In this document: piece by piece, positions 45,919 through 54,731 of the stretch
How the letters are laid out: each line of letters starts with the position of its first letter
Numbering within the stretch: position 1 is the first letter of the stretch
Origin: Longimicrobiales bacterium
GTDB taxonomy: Bacteria > Gemmatimonadota > Gemmatimonadetes > Longimicrobiales > Gaopeijiaceae
Assembly: GCA_041690395.1 (NCBI GenBank)
Contig: JAWLHJ010000003.1
Coordinates: 384,001-448,000, forward strand
Length of the DNA: 64,000 nt
Direction: 5' to 3'
Made by a program: the position numbers and the translations under genes
The notes under the pieces: model-generated
Seen by the model: the letters and a program-made list of their open reading frames with translations, nothing else
Told to the model about the DNA's origin: nothing
Databases searched by the model: none

Positions 45919-46398
45919 TCAATCCGAGTCGCCCTGGAGGGCCTTCGTCGCGTCGCGCTGCCGGGCCGCGGCCCTGGACATGAAGGCGGCGATCACGGCG
46001 AGATCCTCGTCGGAGTAATCCTCGTAGAGCTGACCCAGCCGCTCCGTAAGGCCGGCGAATAGCTTGTAGAGCCCCCGTACCCCCTCGTGGTTCACCTCGA
46101 CCCACGTCCGACGGCCATCGTCCGAGTCCTGGACTCTACGAATGAAGCCGCGACTCTCGAGCCGATCGAGGATCCCCGTGATCGAGGGCGGCTTGAGACC
46201 CGCACGCGTGGCGATATCGCCGGCCAGGAGCGGCCCATGCGCTTCCACGAGCCCGAGTACCTTCCACTGGCTGGCGCTGAGACCGGCATGCTCCCCGAGC
46301 ACGGTGTGGTACATCACCGCGGCATCGCTGAGCTCCCGTCCCGCCGCAGACACCCGCTGGATGATCTCGTCGCGGCCACCCTCTCGCCTACCTGCCAT
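45919..46398 (-). CDS. MarR family transcriptional regulator
   Basis: GLSASQWKVL..AGDIA..ITGILDRLE..DDGRR. Confidence 0.9.
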   Translation of the reverse strand: MAGRREGGRDEIIQRVSAAGRELSDAAVMYHTVLGEHAGLSASQWKVLGLVEAHGPLLAGDIATRAGLKPPSITGILDRLESRGFIRRVQDSDDGRRTWVEVNHEGVRGLYKLFAGLTERLGQLYEDYSDEDLAVIAAFMSRAAARQRDATKALQGDSD

Positions 46399-46966
46399 CT
46401 TCCTCTTCCGATGTGGTGAGCACCCGGCGGATCGCACCCCCGCCCCGCCCCGTCGCCCTTCGGGCCTTCGCCCGTCGTAGATCGTCGGCCAGGGGCGGTC
46501 TGCGGAGTCTCGCATGTCGCGCCAGATAGGCCCAGTCCGCGGCCGTGTCGTGCTTCAGCTGCACATGGTAGTAGTTCGCGTACTCGAGCGCGGCAAAGGC
46601 GACCAGACCCACCGCCCATGTCAGGTCCAGCAGGTCCAACGCGCCCGAGCGCCACTGCATGAAGGCGATGGCTGCGACCGCGGCGAATCCGGCCAGGGAT
46701 ACGGCCCTGAGAAGCTGAAACGTCGATCGGAACCAGCGAGGTAGCCGCAGACGGCCGCGCCGAATGGCTGTCAGCTTCAGGTGCCAGTACGTGGCACCCG
46801 AAGCCAGCAACCAGACCGCCAGGACGAGCGCACAGACCCGCAGTGTCCAAGCTCCTTGGTGGTCGCTCCGTCCCCAGGCCGTGACCACCAAGGCCGGGAG
46901 GATCAGAACGTTGGCGCCCTCCCAGTTTCGAAGCCAAAGCAGTCTTCGGCGGATCGCTGAACGCAC
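46388..46966 (-). CDS. Hypothetical 4-TM membrane protein
   Basis: Four hydrophobic segments, LEYANYYHVQL; overlaps the marR start. Confidence 0.65.
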   Translation of the reverse strand: MRSAIRRRLLWLRNWEGANVLILPALVVTAWGRSDHQGAWTLRVCALVLAVWLLASGATYWHLKLTAIRRGRLRLPRWFRSTFQLLRAVSLAGFAAVAAIAFMQWRSGALDLLDLTWAVGLVAFAALEYANYYHVQLKHDTAADWAYLARHARLRRPPLADDLRRAKARRATGRGGGAIRRVLTTSEEEDGR

Positions 46967-46990
46967 TTGAAACTCCTTGGTCCCTTCTTT

Positions 46991-47017
46991 CGTTCATACA
47001 AACTAACTAACTGAACG
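46991..47017. promoter_or_regulatory. Candidate MarR operator in AT-rich divergent promoter
   Basis: CGTTCA-N15-TGAACG inverted repeat between the divergent units. Confidence 0.5.
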
Positions 47018-47026
47018 GCCTTTTCC

Positions 47027-48262
47027 ATGGAGTCAATGATGCCAGACCCGCTGTCACGGCCCATCCGGCCGCCCATAGCCCGTCCCCTCCCCTCTGCCAT
47101 ACGCGCGCTCGTCATCGGCGGCGGTGTCGCGGGCCCGGCGGCGGCCGTCGCCCTTCAGCGCGTCGGCATCGACGTCGAGCTCTTCGAGTCTTCCGAGGCG
47201 TCGTCGTCCAGCCCCGGACTCTTCCTCACGCTCGCCGTCAACGGCATGCGCGCCCTGGACCGGCTGGGTCTCCTGGAGGGTGTCCTCGAGCAAGACCCGC
47301 CGCCCGTACCCACACCGTCGCTGGTATTCCAGAGCAGTAGCGGTAAGACGCTGGGCACGGTGCCCAACGGCTGGCTGGACGCCGATACCCCATCCGTCAC
47401 ACTCCCTCGTAGTTCCCTCCATGAGGCCCTGGTGCGCCAGGCAGACCGACGCGGCATCAAGGTGCATCGCGGGCGACGACTCGTCTCCGCAGAAGAGACG
47501 TATGAATCCGTCGTCGCCCGGTTCGAGGACGGCTCCGAGGCCACGGCTGAGTTCCTGGTCGGGGCCGACGGCATCCGCTCGGTGGTCCGCCAGCTCGTCG
47601 ACCCTGCGGCTCCTGTCCCGCGCCACACCGGGCTCATGAACCTGGGCGGAATGCTGGCCGGCTCACCGCTCGACCCGACCCCCGGCGCCATGCATATGCT
47701 GTGGGGGACGAAGGCGTTCTTCGGGCACACAGTAGCTGACGATGGACGAGTGCTGTGGTTCGCCAACGCACCGCCGCCCTCAGTGCCTCCAGGGCCTTCT
47801 TGCGCGGACTGGAAGGAGCACCTCCTCGAGCTCTTCGATGACGACCCGCCGGTGGTGTCCCGGATCATAGGGTCCACACCCCAGGTGGGCGCATGGCCCA
47901 TCGAGGAACTTCCGGAGCTCCCCACCTGGCACTCCAGGCGCATGGTCCTCGTTGGGGACGCCGCCCATGCAGTCTCCCCCAGCACCGGTCAGGGGGCCTC
48001 ACTGGCCATCGAGGACACCGTGGTCCTGGCTCGGGCCTTGGCAGACTCGAGCGACCTGCCCACTGCCTTTCGGCACTACGCCGCTGAACGCAGACCGCGT
48101 ACGACGCGCGTCCTCAAGGTCGGACAACGCCGCGGGGCCTACAAAGCCCCAGCAAACCGCGTCGTACTCTTTCTTCGTGATCTCTGCCTCCCCATCGCCA
48201 TGCCCCTCTTCGCCAACGAAGAGCGGCTTGCCTGGCTCCACGACTACGAGGCCGTCCTATGA
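47027..48262 (+). CDS. FAD-dependent monooxygenase (UbiH/salicylate hydroxylase family)
   Basis: GGGVAG, GADGIRS, LVGDAAH..GQGASLAIED. Confidence 0.92.
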   Translation: MESMMPDPLSRPIRPPIARPLPSAIRALVIGGGVAGPAAAVALQRVGIDVELFESSEASSSSPGLFLTLAVNGMRALDRLGLLEGVLEQDPPPVPTPSLVFQSSSGKTLGTVPNGWLDADTPSVTLPRSSLHEALVRQADRRGIKVHRGRRLVSAEETYESVVARFEDGSEATAEFLVGADGIRSVVRQLVDPAAPVPRHTGLMNLGGMLAGSPLDPTPGAMHMLWGTKAFFGHTVADDGRVLWFANAPPPSVPPGPSCADWKEHLLELFDDDPPVVSRIIGSTPQVGAWPIEELPELPTWHSRRMVLVGDAAHAVSPSTGQGASLAIEDTVVLARALADSSDLPTAFRHYAAERRPRTTRVLKVGQRRGAYKAPANRVVLFLRDLCLPIAMPLFANEERLAWLHDYEAVL

Positions 48263-49701
48263 ATCTCCTGCACACGCTGCGCTACTGGACACTCGCGACC
48301 CTCCTTCTTCACGTCGGATGTGCGCCCGGACCCAACGCCCCCGGGCACGCATCGTTCGTGTATCCGCTTCCCATCCCACCCCTGGCCGAGTCCCGTCGGG
48401 ACGGAGAAGGCCGCGTCGAGTTCCGACTCGAGGCGCGAGAAGGCACCCGTGAGTTCCGCGCCGGTTACCGGACGGCCACGCGGGGGCTCAATGACGACCA
48501 TCTTGGTCCTACGCTGAGGATGGCGCGTGGCGACGAGGTCGTGGTGCACCTCACCAACGCCCTGCCCGAGGCCACGACCATGCACTGGCACGGCATGGAA
48601 CTGCCCGCCGTCATGGATGGCGGTCCTCATCAGATGGTGGAGCCCGGCGCCACGTGGTCGCCGACGTGGACCGTGCGTCAGCCGGCGGCCACCCTCTGGT
48701 ATCATCCCCACCCCCACGGGGCCACGGAGCGTCACGTGTACAGCGGAATGGTGGGCATGATTCTCATCGACGACGACGGCTCCTTTTCCGACGGGGCCCT
48801 GCCGGACACGTACGGAGTGGACGATGTCCCGGTGCTGGTTCAGGACGTCACGCTGGACGCGGACGGACAACTTGTCCGGCACAAGCCCTGGTACAACCAG
48901 GTCGGCCCCCTGGGCGAGATGGTCCTCGTGAACGGAGCTGTCACTCCGTATCACGATGTCGGCGACGAGCTCATCCGACTAAGGCTGCTGAACGCCTCGC
49001 TCTCGCGCGTCTACGCCTTCGGGCTCTCGGATGGTCGCGCGTTCCACGTGGTCGCCTCCGACGGCGGGCTCCTCACCGAGCCGCTCCTGACTGAACGTAT
49101 CCGACTGTCTCCCGGCGAGCGGGCGGACATCGTCGTACGGATGGAGGGTGGGGACACCATCCGACTTACAAGCCATTCGCCGGAGCTCGGGACCGACTTC
49201 GTCAACAACCGGTTGGCCGGAGGCCAGGACCGGTTCGAGCTCCTGGAGCTCCGGGCGAGCGACACCCTTAGCACCTCCCCGCCCCTCCCTACGCGTCTCG
49301 CCCGCATCGAAGCGCCTGACCCATCCGCGGCCGACAGAGTCCGGTCATTCAAGGTCTCCTCGTCCACCATCAACGGGCTATCCATGGACATGCGCCGCAT
49401 CGATGCGCACATCCACCGGGGTGCCACGGAGATCTGGGAGGTGGGGGGTATCGCCGTGCCGCACAACTTCCACGTCCACGGCGTCCGGTTCCGCATCCTG
49501 GACATGGACGGACACCGACCGCCGCCGGAGTTCGCGGGCTGGAAGGATACGGTATACCTCGACCCCGATACGGTGACGCGCCTGCTTATCACGTTCCCCG
49601 AGCAAGAGGACGACGTACCCTTCATGTTCCACTGCCACTTCCTGCGACACGAGGACGACGGGGCCATGGGCCAGTTCCTCGTGGGCTCGGAGCGCCCATG
49701 A
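48259..49701 (+). CDS. Multicopper oxidase (CueO/bilirubin oxidase-like)
   Basis: HWHG, WYHPH, HNFHVH, HCHFLRHEDDGAM. Confidence 0.92.
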   Translation: MNLLHTLRYWTLATLLLHVGCAPGPNAPGHASFVYPLPIPPLAESRRDGEGRVEFRLEAREGTREFRAGYRTATRGLNDDHLGPTLRMARGDEVVVHLTNALPEATTMHWHGMELPAVMDGGPHQMVEPGATWSPTWTVRQPAATLWYHPHPHGATERHVYSGMVGMILIDDDGSFSDGALPDTYGVDDVPVLVQDVTLDADGQLVRHKPWYNQVGPLGEMVLVNGAVTPYHDVGDELIRLRLLNASLSRVYAFGLSDGRAFHVVASDGGLLTEPLLTERIRLSPGERADIVVRMEGGDTIRLTSHSPELGTDFVNNRLAGGQDRFELLELRASDTLSTSPPLPTRLARIEAPDPSAADRVRSFKVSSSTINGLSMDMRRIDAHIHRGATEIWEVGGIAVPHNFHVHGVRFRILDMDGHRPPPEFAGWKDTVYLDPDTVTRLLITFPEQEDDVPFMFHCHFLRHEDDGAMGQFLVGSERP

Positions 49702-49980
49702 CGATGAAGACGAACCCCAGCCGATTGCCTGACGTATCCCTCGCGCTGACGGCGGTAGCCTTCGGGCTCCCTGGCCTGGCACCCCACTGCCCTCCTCCTG
49801 CAGGTGCTGGCGTTCGCGGGGCTATTCCTCGGCCGCGTCTACGTCCTGGTGGCAGATGGCGCGCCGGAACGCACCACTCTCGGCCTCATGACCCTGGAAC
49901 GGCTAGGCGTGATCATCGGTCTCGTTGCCTACCACGCGTCGTCCCGTCCTCCGCCAGAGAGCGACGGCAGCGATCGCTGA
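49698..49980 (+). pseudogene. Frameshifted, internally deleted DUF4345-like membrane protein
   Basis: N-terminus SLALTAVAFGLPGLA, then in another frame ALLLQVLAFAGLFLGRVYVLVADGAP..LMTLE. Confidence 0.5.
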
Positions 49981-50069
49981 AGGCACAGCCACCAACCAGA
50001 ACGCCAGGCCCGCGAGCACGGCCGGCATGATGCCGGCCATCGCCTCGAAACCATGGCCGCCACCTACCC

Positions 50070-51422
50070 TCAATCCGCCAACGTCCGCACGAGCCGCGCG
50101 AAGTCGCCGAACCCGTCCCGGTCCGGATCGTAGTCGGCCCCGCCCTCGATCATGCGGACGCCGACGAGTCGCTCCTCGGGATAGATGACCAGGTACTGAC
50201 CGAGGAAGCCGGAAGCGAGAGCGCCCACCACTCCACCTCCGTCGTCCTCGTCGCGGATGAGCCACCAGAGGAGCCCGGCGCTCGGATTGTGCTCCGAGCC
50301 CGGCGAAACGCTCTCCTCGAACCACGACGCCTGGATGAGCTGCTCTCCCTCCCACTCGCCGCGCTGAAGGACGAGCTGTCCGAGCTTGGCCAGGTCCTCC
50401 GGGCGTATCTGCAGGCCCGCCATTCCGTGCGGATTATTGGCGTCGTCCAGGCTCCAGGTGGCGTCGGTGATGCCCAGGGGCCGAAAGATCTCGTCCTGGA
50501 GCAGCGTGTCCATGCGGCGGCCGGCTGCCTCGCCGATCACTCCAGCGAGCAGGTTCGTGGCGTTGTTGTTGTACTCGAACATCGTACCGGGCTCGGACAC
50601 GAGCTCCGAGTCGAGCGCGTAGCCCACGAAGTCACCACTCTCGTAGATCGGATTCGTAGGCAATGGAGACGCGAGCCCTGACGTGTGGTTCATCAGATGC
50701 CGAATCGTGACACGCGCCTTCTCCCCCTCCGACCACGTCGGATAGAAGTCATGGACGGGCGTGTCGAGGGACTCGAGAAGCCCGGTGGTGAGGAGCCGGC
50801 CGACGGCGAGGTTGACCACCGACTTCGTGGCGGACATCGCTTCGATACGGCGAGACTCGTCAGCCGCCAGCCAGGATCCGACGAGCTCGCCGTCGTGAAG
50901 CACGACCATGGCGCTCGAGCGACTTGCGGTGGCGGCATCCATCAGAGCCTCGAGGGCGGCCCGGTCCACCCGCTCCACGGCCGGGCCTTCGCGCACCGTC
51001 GCAAACCCCTCCGGGTTCCCCGCAGCCTCCGCTTTCTGCTCCCGGTAGGCCGACCAGGCCGAGGTTCCCGCCCGGTACAGCGTGAGCGGAGCCTCCATGC
51101 CGTTTCGGTCTCCGAAGGTCACCGCGCCCGTGATGGAATCCCCATGCACCACGCCTTTGAACGTACGTTGCGGTGTGAGCGTCAGCGTAAGCGCACGCTC
51201 ATCGAGCTCCACCCTCGCGACAGGGACGTCTCGCACCCCTTCGGCGGGAACCGAGAGGGTCGCGTCCCACGAGTCGGCCGCGCCCGAGAATGAGACCTCG
51301 AACGTGAGTGCCAGCGGATCAAGCCTCAACGGCCCTTCCCATTCACCCTGCAGGTCCGGAGGCACTCCCGGCGCAGTGGCCGCGATGATCACGAATCCCG
51401 CCAGCGCGCACATCAACTTCAT
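50070..51422 (-). CDS. Serine hydrolase, beta-lactamase/AmpC family, secreted
   Basis: SATK (SxxK), HLMNHTSG, FEYNN, ASGFLGQ. Confidence 0.88.
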   Translation of the reverse strand: MKLMCALAGFVIIAATAPGVPPDLQGEWEGPLRLDPLALTFEVSFSGAADSWDATLSVPAEGVRDVPVARVELDERALTLTLTPQRTFKGVVHGDSITGAVTFGDRNGMEAPLTLYRAGTSAWSAYREQKAEAAGNPEGFATVREGPAVERVDRAALEALMDAATASRSSAMVVLHDGELVGSWLAADESRRIEAMSATKSVVNLAVGRLLTTGLLESLDTPVHDFYPTWSEGEKARVTIRHLMNHTSGLASPLPTNPIYESGDFVGYALDSELVSEPGTMFEYNNNATNLLAGVIGEAAGRRMDTLLQDEIFRPLGITDATWSLDDANNPHGMAGLQIRPEDLAKLGQLVLQRGEWEGEQLIQASWFEESVSPGSEHNPSAGLLWWLIRDEDDGGGVVGALASGFLGQYLVIYPEERLVGVRMIEGGADYDPDRDGFGDFARLVRTLAD

Positions 51423-51472
51423 CCCTACCTCCCCATCCCGATCGAAAGAGCGACGAACTCGTTTCCATTGTC

Positions 51473-51556
51473 TACGAGGCGATCCGCCGTCGGGATTCAC
51501 GGCGCAAGCACCTTGTCCGCCATGCGATCTGAATCGGATCGAGGCCCCTGCCCGTA
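51473..51556. promoter_or_regulatory. Back-to-back ECF-type promoters
   Basis: TGAATC-N17-CGTA on minus (51473-51499) and on plus (51530-51556). Confidence 0.55.
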
Positions 51557-51623
51557 TGGAGGGGCGACCACATGGTGACCGCACGGCAGCGGGACCTTCA
51601 GAAACGACCCAAGGAGCTGGATC

Positions 51624-52622
51624 ATGCGTGGATACCGCGCGGCAGGACTGCTGTTGTTCAGCAGCTTCGCCATCGCTTCAGGCCCGACGCCAGTCACGGC
51701 ACAACAGGACGATGTCGTGGGCCCTCGCTCAGACCTACCGGCGACGGAAGTCCGTGTCGTCGACCTGACGCCTCGCTTCCTCGCGTTCTACGACGCGGCG
51801 TTAGAGGAGAACGCGGATGAGGCGAGGCGGTGGGAGCTCTGGCAAGAGATGTACGGTTTCGCCGCCCTGCCTCCCGTACCCGAGCGGGACTCCCTGGCCC
51901 GCCAGATGCTTGCCGGCGCCTGGCCACGGTATCCAAGCGTCATCGATCGCATCCGGGAGGGAGCGGAAGCGATACGGCCCACGCCGGATTCCATACTCCG
52001 AGCCGTGGCCACACGCCTTGAAGCGGATGAGCCCGTTCGCGTGGAGCTGCTCGTCTTCGCCGGCGACGTGGCGAGTGGCGGGTTCTTCGCGCCTCAGGAC
52101 GGCCGGATGGTGGTCGCGCTCCCCGTGGAAGAGGAGCCCGACCAGCGAACACAGACGCTCGTCCACGAGTTCACGCACGTGGCCCATCACGCGCTGGGGC
52201 ACCTTTCCGAGGGCTGGGAGCGAAGCCTCGCACGTACCCTGTTCGCCGAGGGACTCGCCAACCGCATGCAGCAGGCGTTCTTCCCCGACCGTCCGGCCGC
52301 GGCGTTCGTCGAGCACCGCCCCGGTTGGTTCGCGGAGGCCGAGGCCCGGGAGGCAGCCATCCTGCGCGGCCTTCGCGAGTCGTTGACGGACGCGAGCTCC
52401 GACCAGGTGATGCGGTTCACCATGGGGACCGGGACGACCGGCATCGAGCGAGAGGCGTACTACGCCGGCTGGGTGGTCGTCGGGTACCTCCTCGAGCACG
52501 GCTGGGACCTCTCGGAGCTCGCTAGGGTGCCCGAGGATGAGATCACCCAGCTGGTCGCTCAGACCATCGACGACCTGCTCGACCGACGAGCGGATCGCTC
52601 CAGCCCCATCGACAACGCGTGA
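51624..52622 (+). CDS. Secreted Zn-dependent protease (DUF2268-like)
   Basis: AAGGAG RBS, signal peptide, HEFTH..EGLA..YYAG. Confidence 0.75.
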   Translation: MRGYRAAGLLLFSSFAIASGPTPVTAQQDDVVGPRSDLPATEVRVVDLTPRFLAFYDAALEENADEARRWELWQEMYGFAALPPVPERDSLARQMLAGAWPRYPSVIDRIREGAEAIRPTPDSILRAVATRLEADEPVRVELLVFAGDVASGGFFAPQDGRMVVALPVEEEPDQRTQTLVHEFTHVAHHALGHLSEGWERSLARTLFAEGLANRMQQAFFPDRPAAAFVEHRPGWFAEAEAREAAILRGLRESLTDASSDQVMRFTMGTGTTGIEREAYYAGWVVVGYLLEHGWDLSELARVPEDEITQLVAQTIDDLLDRRADRSSPIDNA

Positions 52623-52644
52623 ACTCTATCGAAGAGGTGCTTGG

Positions 52645-53421
52645 TCACGATCGCTCTGCCGTAAGGGCCAGGAACAATGGGATGTCTCGGTTCGGCTCCC
52701 CACCCTGCTTGTCCCGCCCATCCCGCGACCGCTCCGAATCGAGGCCGGGGATCTCGGCGAGGCGACGCACGCTGAACCCAAGCTCCGCCAGGGCATCGAC
52801 GTAGTCCTGCAGGGGCCGATGATAGCTCCGGGTCTTCCCCCGGTTTCTCCCTTTCCCGTGGGATTTCATCGGGACGGCCAGAGGCGTCAGATATCGATCG
52901 ACCCGTCGAAAGGAGAGCTTCCGGGACGCGTCCCACGCCCAACCGCTCTGTCGGGGCACACGGAAACACGGGTGCGTCATCAGCATGACGATGCGCCCGT
53001 TAGGCTTGAGCGCCCAGGCGGCTGACGCGAGGACCTCGTCGAGCGGCTCGATGTCCTGGATGCTCAGGAGGAACGTGGCCGCGTCGAACGCTTCCGGCCC
53101 GAGTCCGTCGGTGCGGCGGAGGCAGGTGGCGTCGGCCCGCAGGAACCGAGCCTTTCGGGGTTGAACCTTACGTGCATACCGCACCAAACGCGCGCTCAAG
53201 TCCACGCCGGTGTAGCGACTCCCAGCCTCGATCACGGGTCGGCACAGCGCTCCGGTGCCGCACCCGACGTCGAGGATGTGCTCACCCGGTCTCGGGCCCA
53301 ACAGGCCGAGCAGCTCCGGAATGGCGATCTCGATGTGATGGCGGCTGCCGCGTGGTCCCACCCATCCGGCGTACCAGTCAGCAACCGGGTCCCAACTCCC
53401 ACTCCTTCTCTTCTTGCCCAT
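52645..53421 (-). CDS. Class I SAM-dependent methyltransferase
   Basis: ILDVGCGTG, GVDLS, ADA; SWDPVADWY, HPCFRVPRQSGW, YHRPL, IPLFL. Confidence 0.9.
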   Translation of the reverse strand: MGKKRRSGSWDPVADWYAGWVGPRGSRHHIEIAIPELLGLLGPRPGEHILDVGCGTGALCRPVIEAGSRYTGVDLSARLVRYARKVQPRKARFLRADATCLRRTDGLGPEAFDAATFLLSIQDIEPLDEVLASAAWALKPNGRIVMLMTHPCFRVPRQSGWAWDASRKLSFRRVDRYLTPLAVPMKSHGKGRNRGKTRSYHRPLQDYVDALAELGFSVRRLAEIPGLDSERSRDGRDKQGGEPNRDIPLFLALTAERS

Positions 53422-53690
53422 GGCTCTTCATCCGTTCCAGCGCTCCAGTTCAGTAGAAATCGGAGGGCACGCCAGACGGACGGAGTCCATCCTCAAGGAG
53501 GGGCAAACGCACGGACAGGACGCGATTGGCCTTCCCGGATGGGAAGGCGCGAGACTCGCTAGTGGACGTCCGAGCGATCAGGGCCCGCGGCTCGAATGGG
53601 GTCGCGGGACTCCCCACCTACCTAGAGGCGTGCCGAGGCCTCGAGGCGGATGCGGATGAAGATGGCCGTGTGCTGGGTAAGAATGCTCAT
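53422..53690 (-). promoter_or_regulatory. Structured 5' leader / translational attenuator of the methyltransferase
   Basis: Nested inverted repeats 53425-34/53653-62, 53466-73/53627-34 and 53482-88/53607-13, plus a hairpin at 53530-53549. Confidence 0.7.
53622..53690 (-). CDS. Leader peptide MSILTQHTAIFIRIRLEASARL (22 aa, leaderless)
   Basis: ATG lies 6 nt after a TACAAT -10 box; its codons 10-13 are complementary to the downstream RBS region. Confidence 0.65.
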   Translation of the reverse strand: MSILTQHTAIFIRIRLEASARL

Positions 53691-54625
53691 GAAGCCATTG
53701 TAGCCACGGTTCCGCGCGAGTCCAAGGCTGACTGAAAAGCGCGGATGAGCTGTGGAGCCAACCGGAAGGGAACCGCGCCAGCCGTCGCTTGGTCCACCGT
53801 TCCGCTGAGGAACAGATCCAACTCCGGAGCATGAAACAGCCAGGATCCCGTCGACCCCGTGTGGCCGACCACGGCTGGTACGGGACGGAACGGATTGAGG
53901 AACCGGGATGCACGGAAGCGCATCATGCCAAGGCCATATTCGATGGGCCAGGGTGGTAGCCGCAAAGCGGTCCGGTCCAATGGGAATCCGAAGCGGTTCC
54001 AGCGTTCCTGCATGAGCCGCGACGTCGCCTCGTCATCGAAGGCGTCGCCACCGAGTAGGGCACGAAGGAACAGAATGGTGTCGTCCACCGTGCTGTAGAG
54101 GTCGCCGAGCGACGCGAGGACCAGTGGTTTGTCCATCGGCTCGCCTCCAACCCATGGCGTCGCCGCCAAGGGCGTCGGGTCAAGCGGCGGGTGCCCTGGC
54201 AGCCACGTGTGGTGAAGCCCGAGCGGCCGGAACAGCATGTCCTCGTAGACACGCCCCAAAGGCTTCCCGGTAACCGCTTCGATGATGGCCATCAGCAAGC
54301 GGAAGTTCGTATCAGAGTACCGGGCCCTCACGCGTGCCGCTTTGAATGCCTGGGGGGCAAAATGCGGTCTGAGCTCGTTCCGCACGGTGTGCGTCACGAG
54401 CTCGATGTCTAGCCTGCGGTCTTCGCCCTTAAAGACGCGCTCCAAAAGGCAGGGCCCGTGCTTCGGATAATCCTCCAGCCAGTCCGGTAGGCCCGACGTG
54501 TGACTGAGCAGGTGGCGTGGGGTGATCCGCTCGGTATAGTCGACGCCGTCCAGGCGGTGGAGTCCCCTTCACGTGGCGGCGGTGATCCGCTCGCCCGAGA
54601 CGGATCTGTTCCTCCCGCCACATCG
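53687..54625 (-). pseudogene. Truncated serine hydrolase (beta-lactamase family)
   Basis: Frame extends upstream to GLHRLDGVDY..HLLSHTSGLPDW and contains YSDTN and GHTG. An in-frame TGA lies near 54570 and the SxxK N-terminus is missing. Confidence 0.7.
53697..53725 (-). promoter_or_regulatory. Sigma-70 promoter (leaderless transcript)
   Basis: TTGGAC-N17-TACAAT-N6-ATG. Confidence 0.7.
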
Positions 54626-54731
54626 AGGCACGAGGTGACCCGTCCGTCCTGACATGGCGCATCGAGCGCCTCAGGTCTATCTGTTCCCAACGGTCGATCA
54701 CACTCGCTCGCCCTCAGCATCCCTTTCATCC

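Follow-up and report, generated by a model that had tools for sequence, protein, structure and literature searches.

What does a 22-codon reading frame do in front of a methyltransferase that fits no named family? The question is raised by a 64,000-nt stretch of contig JAWLHJ010000003.1 from a Longimicrobiales bacterium (positions 384,001 to 448,000, hereafter "the window"), in which a short upstream open reading frame (uORF) encoding an RIR tripeptide precedes the gene for a class I methyltransferase. We hold with moderate confidence that the RIR uORF, lying in a structured 269-nt leader, is a macrolide-sensing stall attenuator that induces the methyltransferase, and that the enzyme acts, by prediction, on rRNA. 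A uORF with an Arg-Ile/Leu-Arg motif also stands before such genes in many bacteria from soil and water. The leader gives a large anonymous methyltransferase family a direct candidate function.

Organization of the locus

All features of the unit lie on the minus strand (Table 1). The promoter described in an earlier, sequence-only reading of the window, TTGGAC and TACAAT separated by 17 nt with the latter 6 nt before the uORF ATG at 53690, is indeed in the sequence. It is the sole promoter-like site in 1.8 kb: a scan of 52400-54200, which scored it as TGGACT-16-TACAAT, found no other, and shuffled sequences averaged 0.0 sites. The uORF is likewise as that reading described it. Because the -10 hexamer stands only 6 nt from the ATG, the predicted start of transcription falls at or next to 53690, which would make the uORF leaderless; from this arrangement we infer that a sigma-70 promoter drives a leaderless transcript from the uORF ATG. 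Among the leaders of the wider family, a -10-like box precedes 9 of 41 motif uORFs versus 27 of 529 other ATGs. The Shine-Dalgarno (SD) sequence of the methyltransferase is weak. A terminator scan detected no intrinsic terminator in the window leader, and a search of Rfam returned no gathering-level match for it, only three weak chance hits.

Table 1. Features of the proposed attenuator unit and its upstream neighbor in the window.
Feature	Position	Strand	Basis or remark
-35-like hexamer, TTGGAC	53720..53725	-	sequence, promoter scan
-10 hexamer, TACAAT	53697..53702	-	6 nt 5' of uORF ATG
uORF, 22 aa, MSILTQHTAIFIRIRLEASARL	53622..53690	-	sequence; family conservation
R13-I14-R15 codons, +X+ motif	53646..53654	-	sequence; stall register from PMC8298421 and PMC6851288; fold scan
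5' arm of 10-bp long-range helix to start region, lineage-specific, TCTTCATCCG	53653..53662	-	
3' arm of 10-bp helix, CGGATGAAGA	53425..53434	-	complementary to TCTTCATCCG
Segment GGCACGCC	53627..53634	-	partly in uORF hairpin; predicted pairing with 53473-53466
8-bp hairpin in the variable mid-leader	53529..53548	-	sequence, fold
Segment GGCGTGCC	53466..53473	-	common to start-occluding hairpin and alternative helix (folding)
Local hairpin, -31 kcal/mol, predicted to bury the weak SD and start region of the methyltransferase	53422..53490	-	folding
Class I SAM-dependent methyltransferase, 258 aa, basic, HPCFRxPRQSxW family	52645..53421	-	
Beta-lactamase-family ORF, 5'-truncated remnant	53687..54445	-	upstream of uORF; outside unit

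The promoter sits in the last codons of the beta-lactamase-family ORF, and the ATG of the uORF overlaps that ORF's stop codon (ATGA). Upstream, the frame of this ORF stays open until an in-frame stop near 54570, and its N-terminal part is missing. Translational coupling to it as the purpose of the unit was rejected because the ORF has lost its 5' part and because a relative about 90% identical (see below) has unlike DNA in that region. A mini-ORF at 53490-53428 was also considered as a coupling peptide and was rejected because the relative has gained a stop codon at position 53438. Elsewhere around the unit, a divergent 335-aa ORF with no Pfam match begins at 54654 and a DUF2268 protease-like ORF occupies 51624-52622. 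The interval 45919-54445 also holds a second beta-lactamase-family hydrolase (50070-51584) and, as judged by eye, MarR-like, FAD monooxygenase and multicopper oxidase ORFs.

Conservation of the leader peptide

To place the uORF in its family, upstream DNA was cut for each homologue, near-duplicates were removed, and ATG-started uORFs of 4-45 aa within 350 nt were collected. Of 95 non-redundant leaders, 38 had an R-[I/L]-R uORF; the discovery set contributed 24 (of 42 leaders) and the held-out metagenome loci 14 (of 53). As controls, the motif occurred in 114 of the genome's 3870 long ORFs and in 0 of 9 distant methyltransferases, and shuffled leaders gave a mean of 5.5 and a maximum of 12 of 95. 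When the set was enlarged to 106 non-redundant leaders of 300-400 nt from several phyla, the motif uORF was present in 41 on the sense strand versus 6 on the antisense strand. About four of the 41 are doubtful (L033 for its start, L039, L059 and L135), and 65 of the 106 leaders have no motif uORF.

An unbiased count of uORF tripeptides yielded the same motif: the top two were RLR (27, versus 5.2 in shuffled leaders) and RIR (14 versus 2.1), and the top tripeptide in each of 30 shuffles reached 8-15. R[AG]R, R[PS]R and K[IL]K showed no enrichment in the 106 leaders. The earlier recognition of RIR as a +X+ macrolide-arrest motif is supported by the conservation of R-[I/L]-R across the family uORFs; the likeness to the IFVI of ErmCL that it also proposed is not, as that sequence was absent among the enriched tripeptides. 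All six arginine codons and 31 distinct 9-mers occur among the motif uORFs, the former indicating that selection acts on the peptide. Examples of the peptides are MRLTQAFYAVRIRVASAARA (L006), MSLMVFADIVFGRLRFA (L046), MATFIRRLRIAR (L063) and MGIIYFRLRMSV (L158). In the tree the motif is spread over several subclades and is dense in the window's own clade, a concentration in related loci which means that the loci are not independent. No such leader was found for the Patescibacteria and Bacillota homologues.

Other short uORFs were seen in leaders of the family. Six loci (L036, L038, L115, L119, L126 and L139) have GTG-started uORFs that begin VTR[FIL]RN, with R-x-R at codons 3-5; these were excluded from the ATG-only counts. 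In the Anaerolineae leaders L035, L043, L059 and L064, I-R-I-W, T-R-I-W or I-R-P-W replaces R-I-R and is perhaps a variant arrest motif.

Folding of the leader and the modelled switch

The window leader folds better than its shuffles (z = -3.1). The sequence-only reading had paired the IFIR codons of the uORF with bases just before the methyltransferase ATG, and the 10-nt complementarity is perfect; a perfect helix of at least 10 nt arose in 14 of 5000 shuffles. This helix is dominant (p about 1) only in folds that end at 53411 or 53400. When more coding sequence is included, the local hairpin at 53490-53422 buries the start region in its place. The start region is predicted to be closed without a ribosome in either fold: the modelled cost of opening it is 15.7-19.2 kcal/mol over five fragment lengths. 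Of the other helices that had been named, GGCACGCC/GGCGTGCC, GGAGTCC/GGACTCC and the 8-bp hairpin can all be read in the sequence; the rod that they were said to form together is not predicted, because the GGAGTCC/GGACTCC helix does not form (pair probability 0.0 in all 8 folds).

When a 28-nt footprint was slid along the uORF, the cost of opening the start region was lowest with codon 14 in the P site at 5 of 5 fragment lengths (9.9-11.3 kcal/mol), and other assumed footprints shifted the optimum between codons 14 and 16. A ribosome on codon 1 left the cost at 17.1 kcal/mol, versus 10.1 kcal/mol at the +X+ stall codon. A ribosome at codon 14 covers the arm of the 10-bp helix and the uORF hairpin and leaves GGCACGCC uncovered. 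In the model, stalling does not simply free the ribosome-binding site (RBS) as the sequence-only reading had it: the opening cost falls, yet the local hairpin is still 78-96% occupied under the modelled stall, so release is partial. Masks placed directly on the 5' arm of the local hairpin gave 13-15 kcal/mol.

A relative from soil

A relative found in soil runs X1-X4, all from one study, aligns over 53405-53677 and differs by 26 letters (about 90% identical). Positions could be assigned to 24 of the 26 differences; the other two fall within about 30 nt of 53677, so the RIR codons may be affected. The 78 switch bases contain 3 substitutions, versus 21 in 147 bases elsewhere (p = 0.02, post hoc). 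The 3' arm of the 10-bp helix is unchanged, as are GGCACGCC (53627-53634) and GGCGTGCC (53466-53473), and the change at 53438 turns a G.U pair into an A-U pair. The 8-bp hairpin at 53529-53548 has lost one base. Beyond 53677 the DNA of the relative is unlike the window; even so, its loose end has an ATG at the same position, preceded at a distance of 7 nt by a TA...T hexamer. Searching 201 genomes of the order at the DNA level for the leader returned only short chance matches.

Structures in homologous leaders

Pairing between the uORF and the RBS is not a feature of the family. The longest helix between motif and start averaged 4.6 nt in the 41 motif leaders, versus 4.4 nt after shuffling; the window alone reaches 10 nt, the 40 others have at most 7 nt, and a conserved uORF-to-RBS helix was rejected. 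Of the 19 motif leaders examined in this way, the window included (the first 22 of the 41 less three doubtful ones), only 4 showed relief of at least 3 kcal/mol. Terminator-like hairpins are present in 23 of 41 motif leaders versus 20 of 65 others. Masking weakened them at equilibrium in only 3 of 21 cases, and terminator switching at equilibrium is mostly unpredicted by folding. Fifteen leaders of the Gemmatimonadota clade keep two tandem terminator-like hairpins with U-rich tails, in which 7 of 26 consensus pairs show two-sided changes, and the uORFs of these leaders have an invariant GUG that is able to pair into the first hairpin. In other clades, it appears, this sensor is combined with terminator-like hairpins.

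The methyltransferase

The enzyme has a Rossmann-like class I fold of the Methyltransf_11/12/25 type, with a motif I GxGxG (DVGCGTG) and an acidic residue after strand 2 (GVD). No named family among the NCBIfam and Pfam models tested fits it. The earlier observation that it does not look like Erm is confirmed by profile scores far below cut-off (Erm(37), 23 bits versus 350; KsgA, 22 versus 171), and PF00398 was matched only weakly, by 8 of 41 family members. In the alignment LLSIQD stands where an NPPY-like motif IV would be, a motif that follows strand 4 in Erm and KsgA. The RlmA zinc ribbon (PF21302) is absent in 41 of 41 members; the window's genome contains no RlmA ribbon and no Erm above cut-off.

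The structure model (pLDDT 82.8) and the sequence have the same nearest solved relatives, 3bkw, 3g5l and 3e8s, all of uncharacterized function (3bkw: E 3e-18, 28% identity; 3e8s: Z 23.7, rmsd 2.7 over 212 residues), followed by the small-molecule enzymes ToxA, MitM, RebM and CypM. Fold neighbors are mostly not RNA enzymes, no rRNA methyltransferase is among the top fold matches, which still allows the rRNA class, and an RNA-binding accessory domain was not detected in the enzyme.

The proteins of the family are distinguished by charge. All 106 are net basic (median pI 9.9). Of 15 paralogues sharing about 30% identity (pI 5.4; the set includes one from the unpublished genome G144) none is, and of 43 more distant paralogues 3 are. 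The paralogues fetched are acidic and do not have the PRQSxWxW insert of the window family, an insert in which the alignment shows invariant Trp and six invariant Arg residues. Among 20 long homologues, 13 carry an RluA-family pseudouridine synthase domain and 5 are fused to an ACPS domain. The fused protein P0132 is 37% identical to the window protein, and the six sampled synthase fusions form one clade, suggesting one fusion event. Taken together, the uniform basic charge and the pseudouridine synthase fusion make RNA the likely substrate of the methyltransferase, as far as sequence can indicate. Of the two targets proposed in the sequence-only reading, rRNA or a ribosome-targeting drug, they favor the RNA.

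The synthase fusions include P0121, P0122, P0125, P0127, P0132 and P0140, two of which are named Phycisphaerales by their sources; the fused synthase matches no named Rlu subfamily at cut-off. The Bacillota homologues L217-L222 have long N-terminal extensions rich in Lys, Arg and Pro. Two of them are fused to a holo-ACP synthase-like domain and another has it as the next gene; in this group the domain precedes an alanine racemase-like gene.

Comparison with known attenuators

On published leaders with a +X+ motif, the ribosome stops when the middle residue of the motif is in the P site, as described for the RLR of ErmDL (PMC8298421, PMC12583479), the RYR of the Bacillus subtilis tlrB leader (PMC6851288) and the RLR of Listeria hflXr (PMC6310831); by analogy the window uORF is predicted to stall with Ile14 in the P site. 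The B. subtilis tlrB gene (yxjB, RlmAII) resembles the unit in having a +X+ leader peptide before a non-Erm class I methyltransferase. Its leader, according to the same paper, controls a 23S rRNA methyltransferase through an SD-sequestering hairpin and a terminator, whereas the window leader has a hairpin and no terminator. Unlike tlrB, the window unit encodes an enzyme without an RlmA zinc ribbon or RlmA match, and its uORF is predicted to be leaderless, with the motif internal at codons 13-15. With ermD it shares an R-L/I-R uORF before a methyltransferase and the logic of translational attenuation (PMC8298421, PMC12583479), and the L004 leader even reads SMRLR, as in ErmDL. It differs from ermD in that the enzyme is not Erm or KsgA and in that the family motif is usually at codons 10-16, versus 6-8. 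The Listeria hflXr leader (rli80) also carries an RLR +X+ motif in a uORF, there in front of a gene that is inducible and connected with the ribosome, and its terminator-type control resembles the Gemmatimonadota-clade leaders (PMC6310831); the gene that it controls encodes a GTPase and not a methyltransferase. Literature searches, which covered mainly openly available papers and included the review PMC13602947, found no paper on this methyltransferase family. The putative sensor is of a known attenuator type and the enzyme family that it controls is uncharacterized; the unit is predicted, by analogy, to work like the tlrB and ermD attenuators while belonging to neither enzyme family.

A mechanism can be proposed on these grounds. 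Transcription from the sigma-70 promoter would begin at the uORF ATG. In the absence of drug, the folds suggest that one of two structures closes the methyltransferase start: the 53490-53422 hairpin, or the 10-bp helix formed with uORF codons 10-13. A ribosome with a bound macrolide or ketolide would halt with Ile14 in the P site, as on known +X+ leaders. Its footprint would block the arm of the 10-bp helix and open the uORF hairpin, and GGCACGCC is predicted to then pair with GGCGUGCC, weakening the start-occluding hairpin. The enzyme made in response would methylate RNA and thereby reduce drug binding; its most plausible target is 23S rRNA close to the exit tunnel or the peptidyl-transferase centre (PTC).

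Alternative explanations

The sensor might instead respond to general ribosome trouble, i.e. any inhibitor of the tunnel or PTC, or slow decoding of +X+, and the enzyme might be an RNA modifier for ribosome maintenance that confers little or no resistance. We regard this as unlikely but worth serious weight, since hflXr, with its RLR leader, is inducible by erythromycin and also by lincomycin (PMC6310831), leaderless uORFs could conceivably respond to start-codon stalls too, and many homologues have no leader, for example those behind rho in Patescibacteria and those with basic N-terminal tails in Bacillota. Against it, the motif is specifically R-[I/L]-R, not any Arg-rich stretch, and the modelled opening cost is lowest with the ribosome on the +X+ stall codon, not on codon 1. 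It is rather improbable that a macrolide-type sensor controls an enzyme that methylates a protein or a small molecule, such as the drug itself. The best matches in sequence and fold, which are uncharacterized or small-molecule enzymes and not rRNA methylases, and the undetected RNA-binding domain would suit such an enzyme; the uniform positive charge, the six invariant arginines of the insert and the pseudouridine synthase fusion would not. Macrolides are also cationic and would fit a basic pocket poorly.

Two further readings concern the leader itself. It is very improbable that the switch consists solely of the 10-bp IFIR-RBS helix, with the stall freeing the RBS directly, as the sequence-only reading had it. 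The helix is perfect, rarely matched by chance, dominant in the two shortest fragments and unchanged in its 3' arm in the relative, but it is absent in longer folds, the local hairpin takes over when it is masked, and among the 40 other motif leaders the longest counterpart is 7 nt. Least credible of all is the idea that the uORF and helices arose by chance in GC-rich intergenic DNA or as a by-product of the upstream gene end. The GC content of about 65%, the promoter inside the upstream ORF and the overlap of the uORF ATG with its stop would permit it; yet the family-wide enrichment of the motif under held-out, shuffle and antisense controls largely refutes it for the family, and at the locus the relative keeps the ATG position and a -10 box despite unlike upstream DNA, and the window uORF is the only leaderless R[IL]R uORF among 9 candidates listed in a scan of the genome.

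A broader and more tentative proposal, which we consider possible though less likely than not, is that these enzymes make up a third, so far unrecognized family of rRNA methyltransferases, separate from Erm and RlmAII, that are inducible and confer macrolide resistance; they would modify a new nucleotide of the exit tunnel or PTC, have spread patchily in Gemmatimonadota, Chloroflexota, Proteobacteria and Rhodothermales, and be betrayed only by their RIR/RLR leaders. If rRNA methylation and macrolide protection hold, the gene would be an environmental resistance determinant unnamed by the NCBIfam models tested, and its target would be a new ribosome modification site. Conserved +X+ uORFs could serve as a tag for ribosome-protecting genes in uncultured phyla.

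Distribution and gene neighbors

A search for the family gave 1956 hits at E <= 0.001, distant relatives counted in. Close homologues (50-60% identity) come from records of Gemmatimonadota, Chloroflexota, Alpha- and Gammaproteobacteria and Rhodothermales, and also of Phycisphaerae, Armatimonadota and Patescibacteria; an archaeal-rich cluster listed in the Atlas is a lead only. The distribution is patchy: 7 of 150 relatives carry the gene, as do 4 of 313 other genomes of the taxonomic family and none of 6 from the genus. With centres included, the counts are 15 of 151 for Chloroflexota and 3 of 121 for Patescibacteria; the gene is present in 6 of 201 Bacillota and 0 of 201 Actinomycetota genomes. 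The unpublished genomes G144, G110, G091 and G300 count in the tallies of the 150 relatives and of the Chloroflexota, and the G300 locus was excluded from the leader analysis. No family member was found on viral contigs or among PLSDB plasmids, the latter holding only paralogues of 25-32% identity.

The neighbor scan comprised 54 of 69 downstream ORFs (40 also by Pfam) and 64 of 82 upstream ORFs (16 by NCBIfam). Neighbors vary, and most are unrelated to ribosomes or drugs. In L052, L053 and L055, two of which are titled Ca. Amesbacteria, the gene lies between rho and an alpha/beta hydrolase with no motif leader, and in a Chloroflexota subclade (L191-L193, L194, L198 and L200) it follows a TauE/SafE transporter with no motif uORF. 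At L178 an ABC-F gene scoring below cut-off overlaps upstream, and at L049, whose leader reads MRMRIVR, a ribosomal-protection-like ABC-F above cut-off lies 29 nt downstream.
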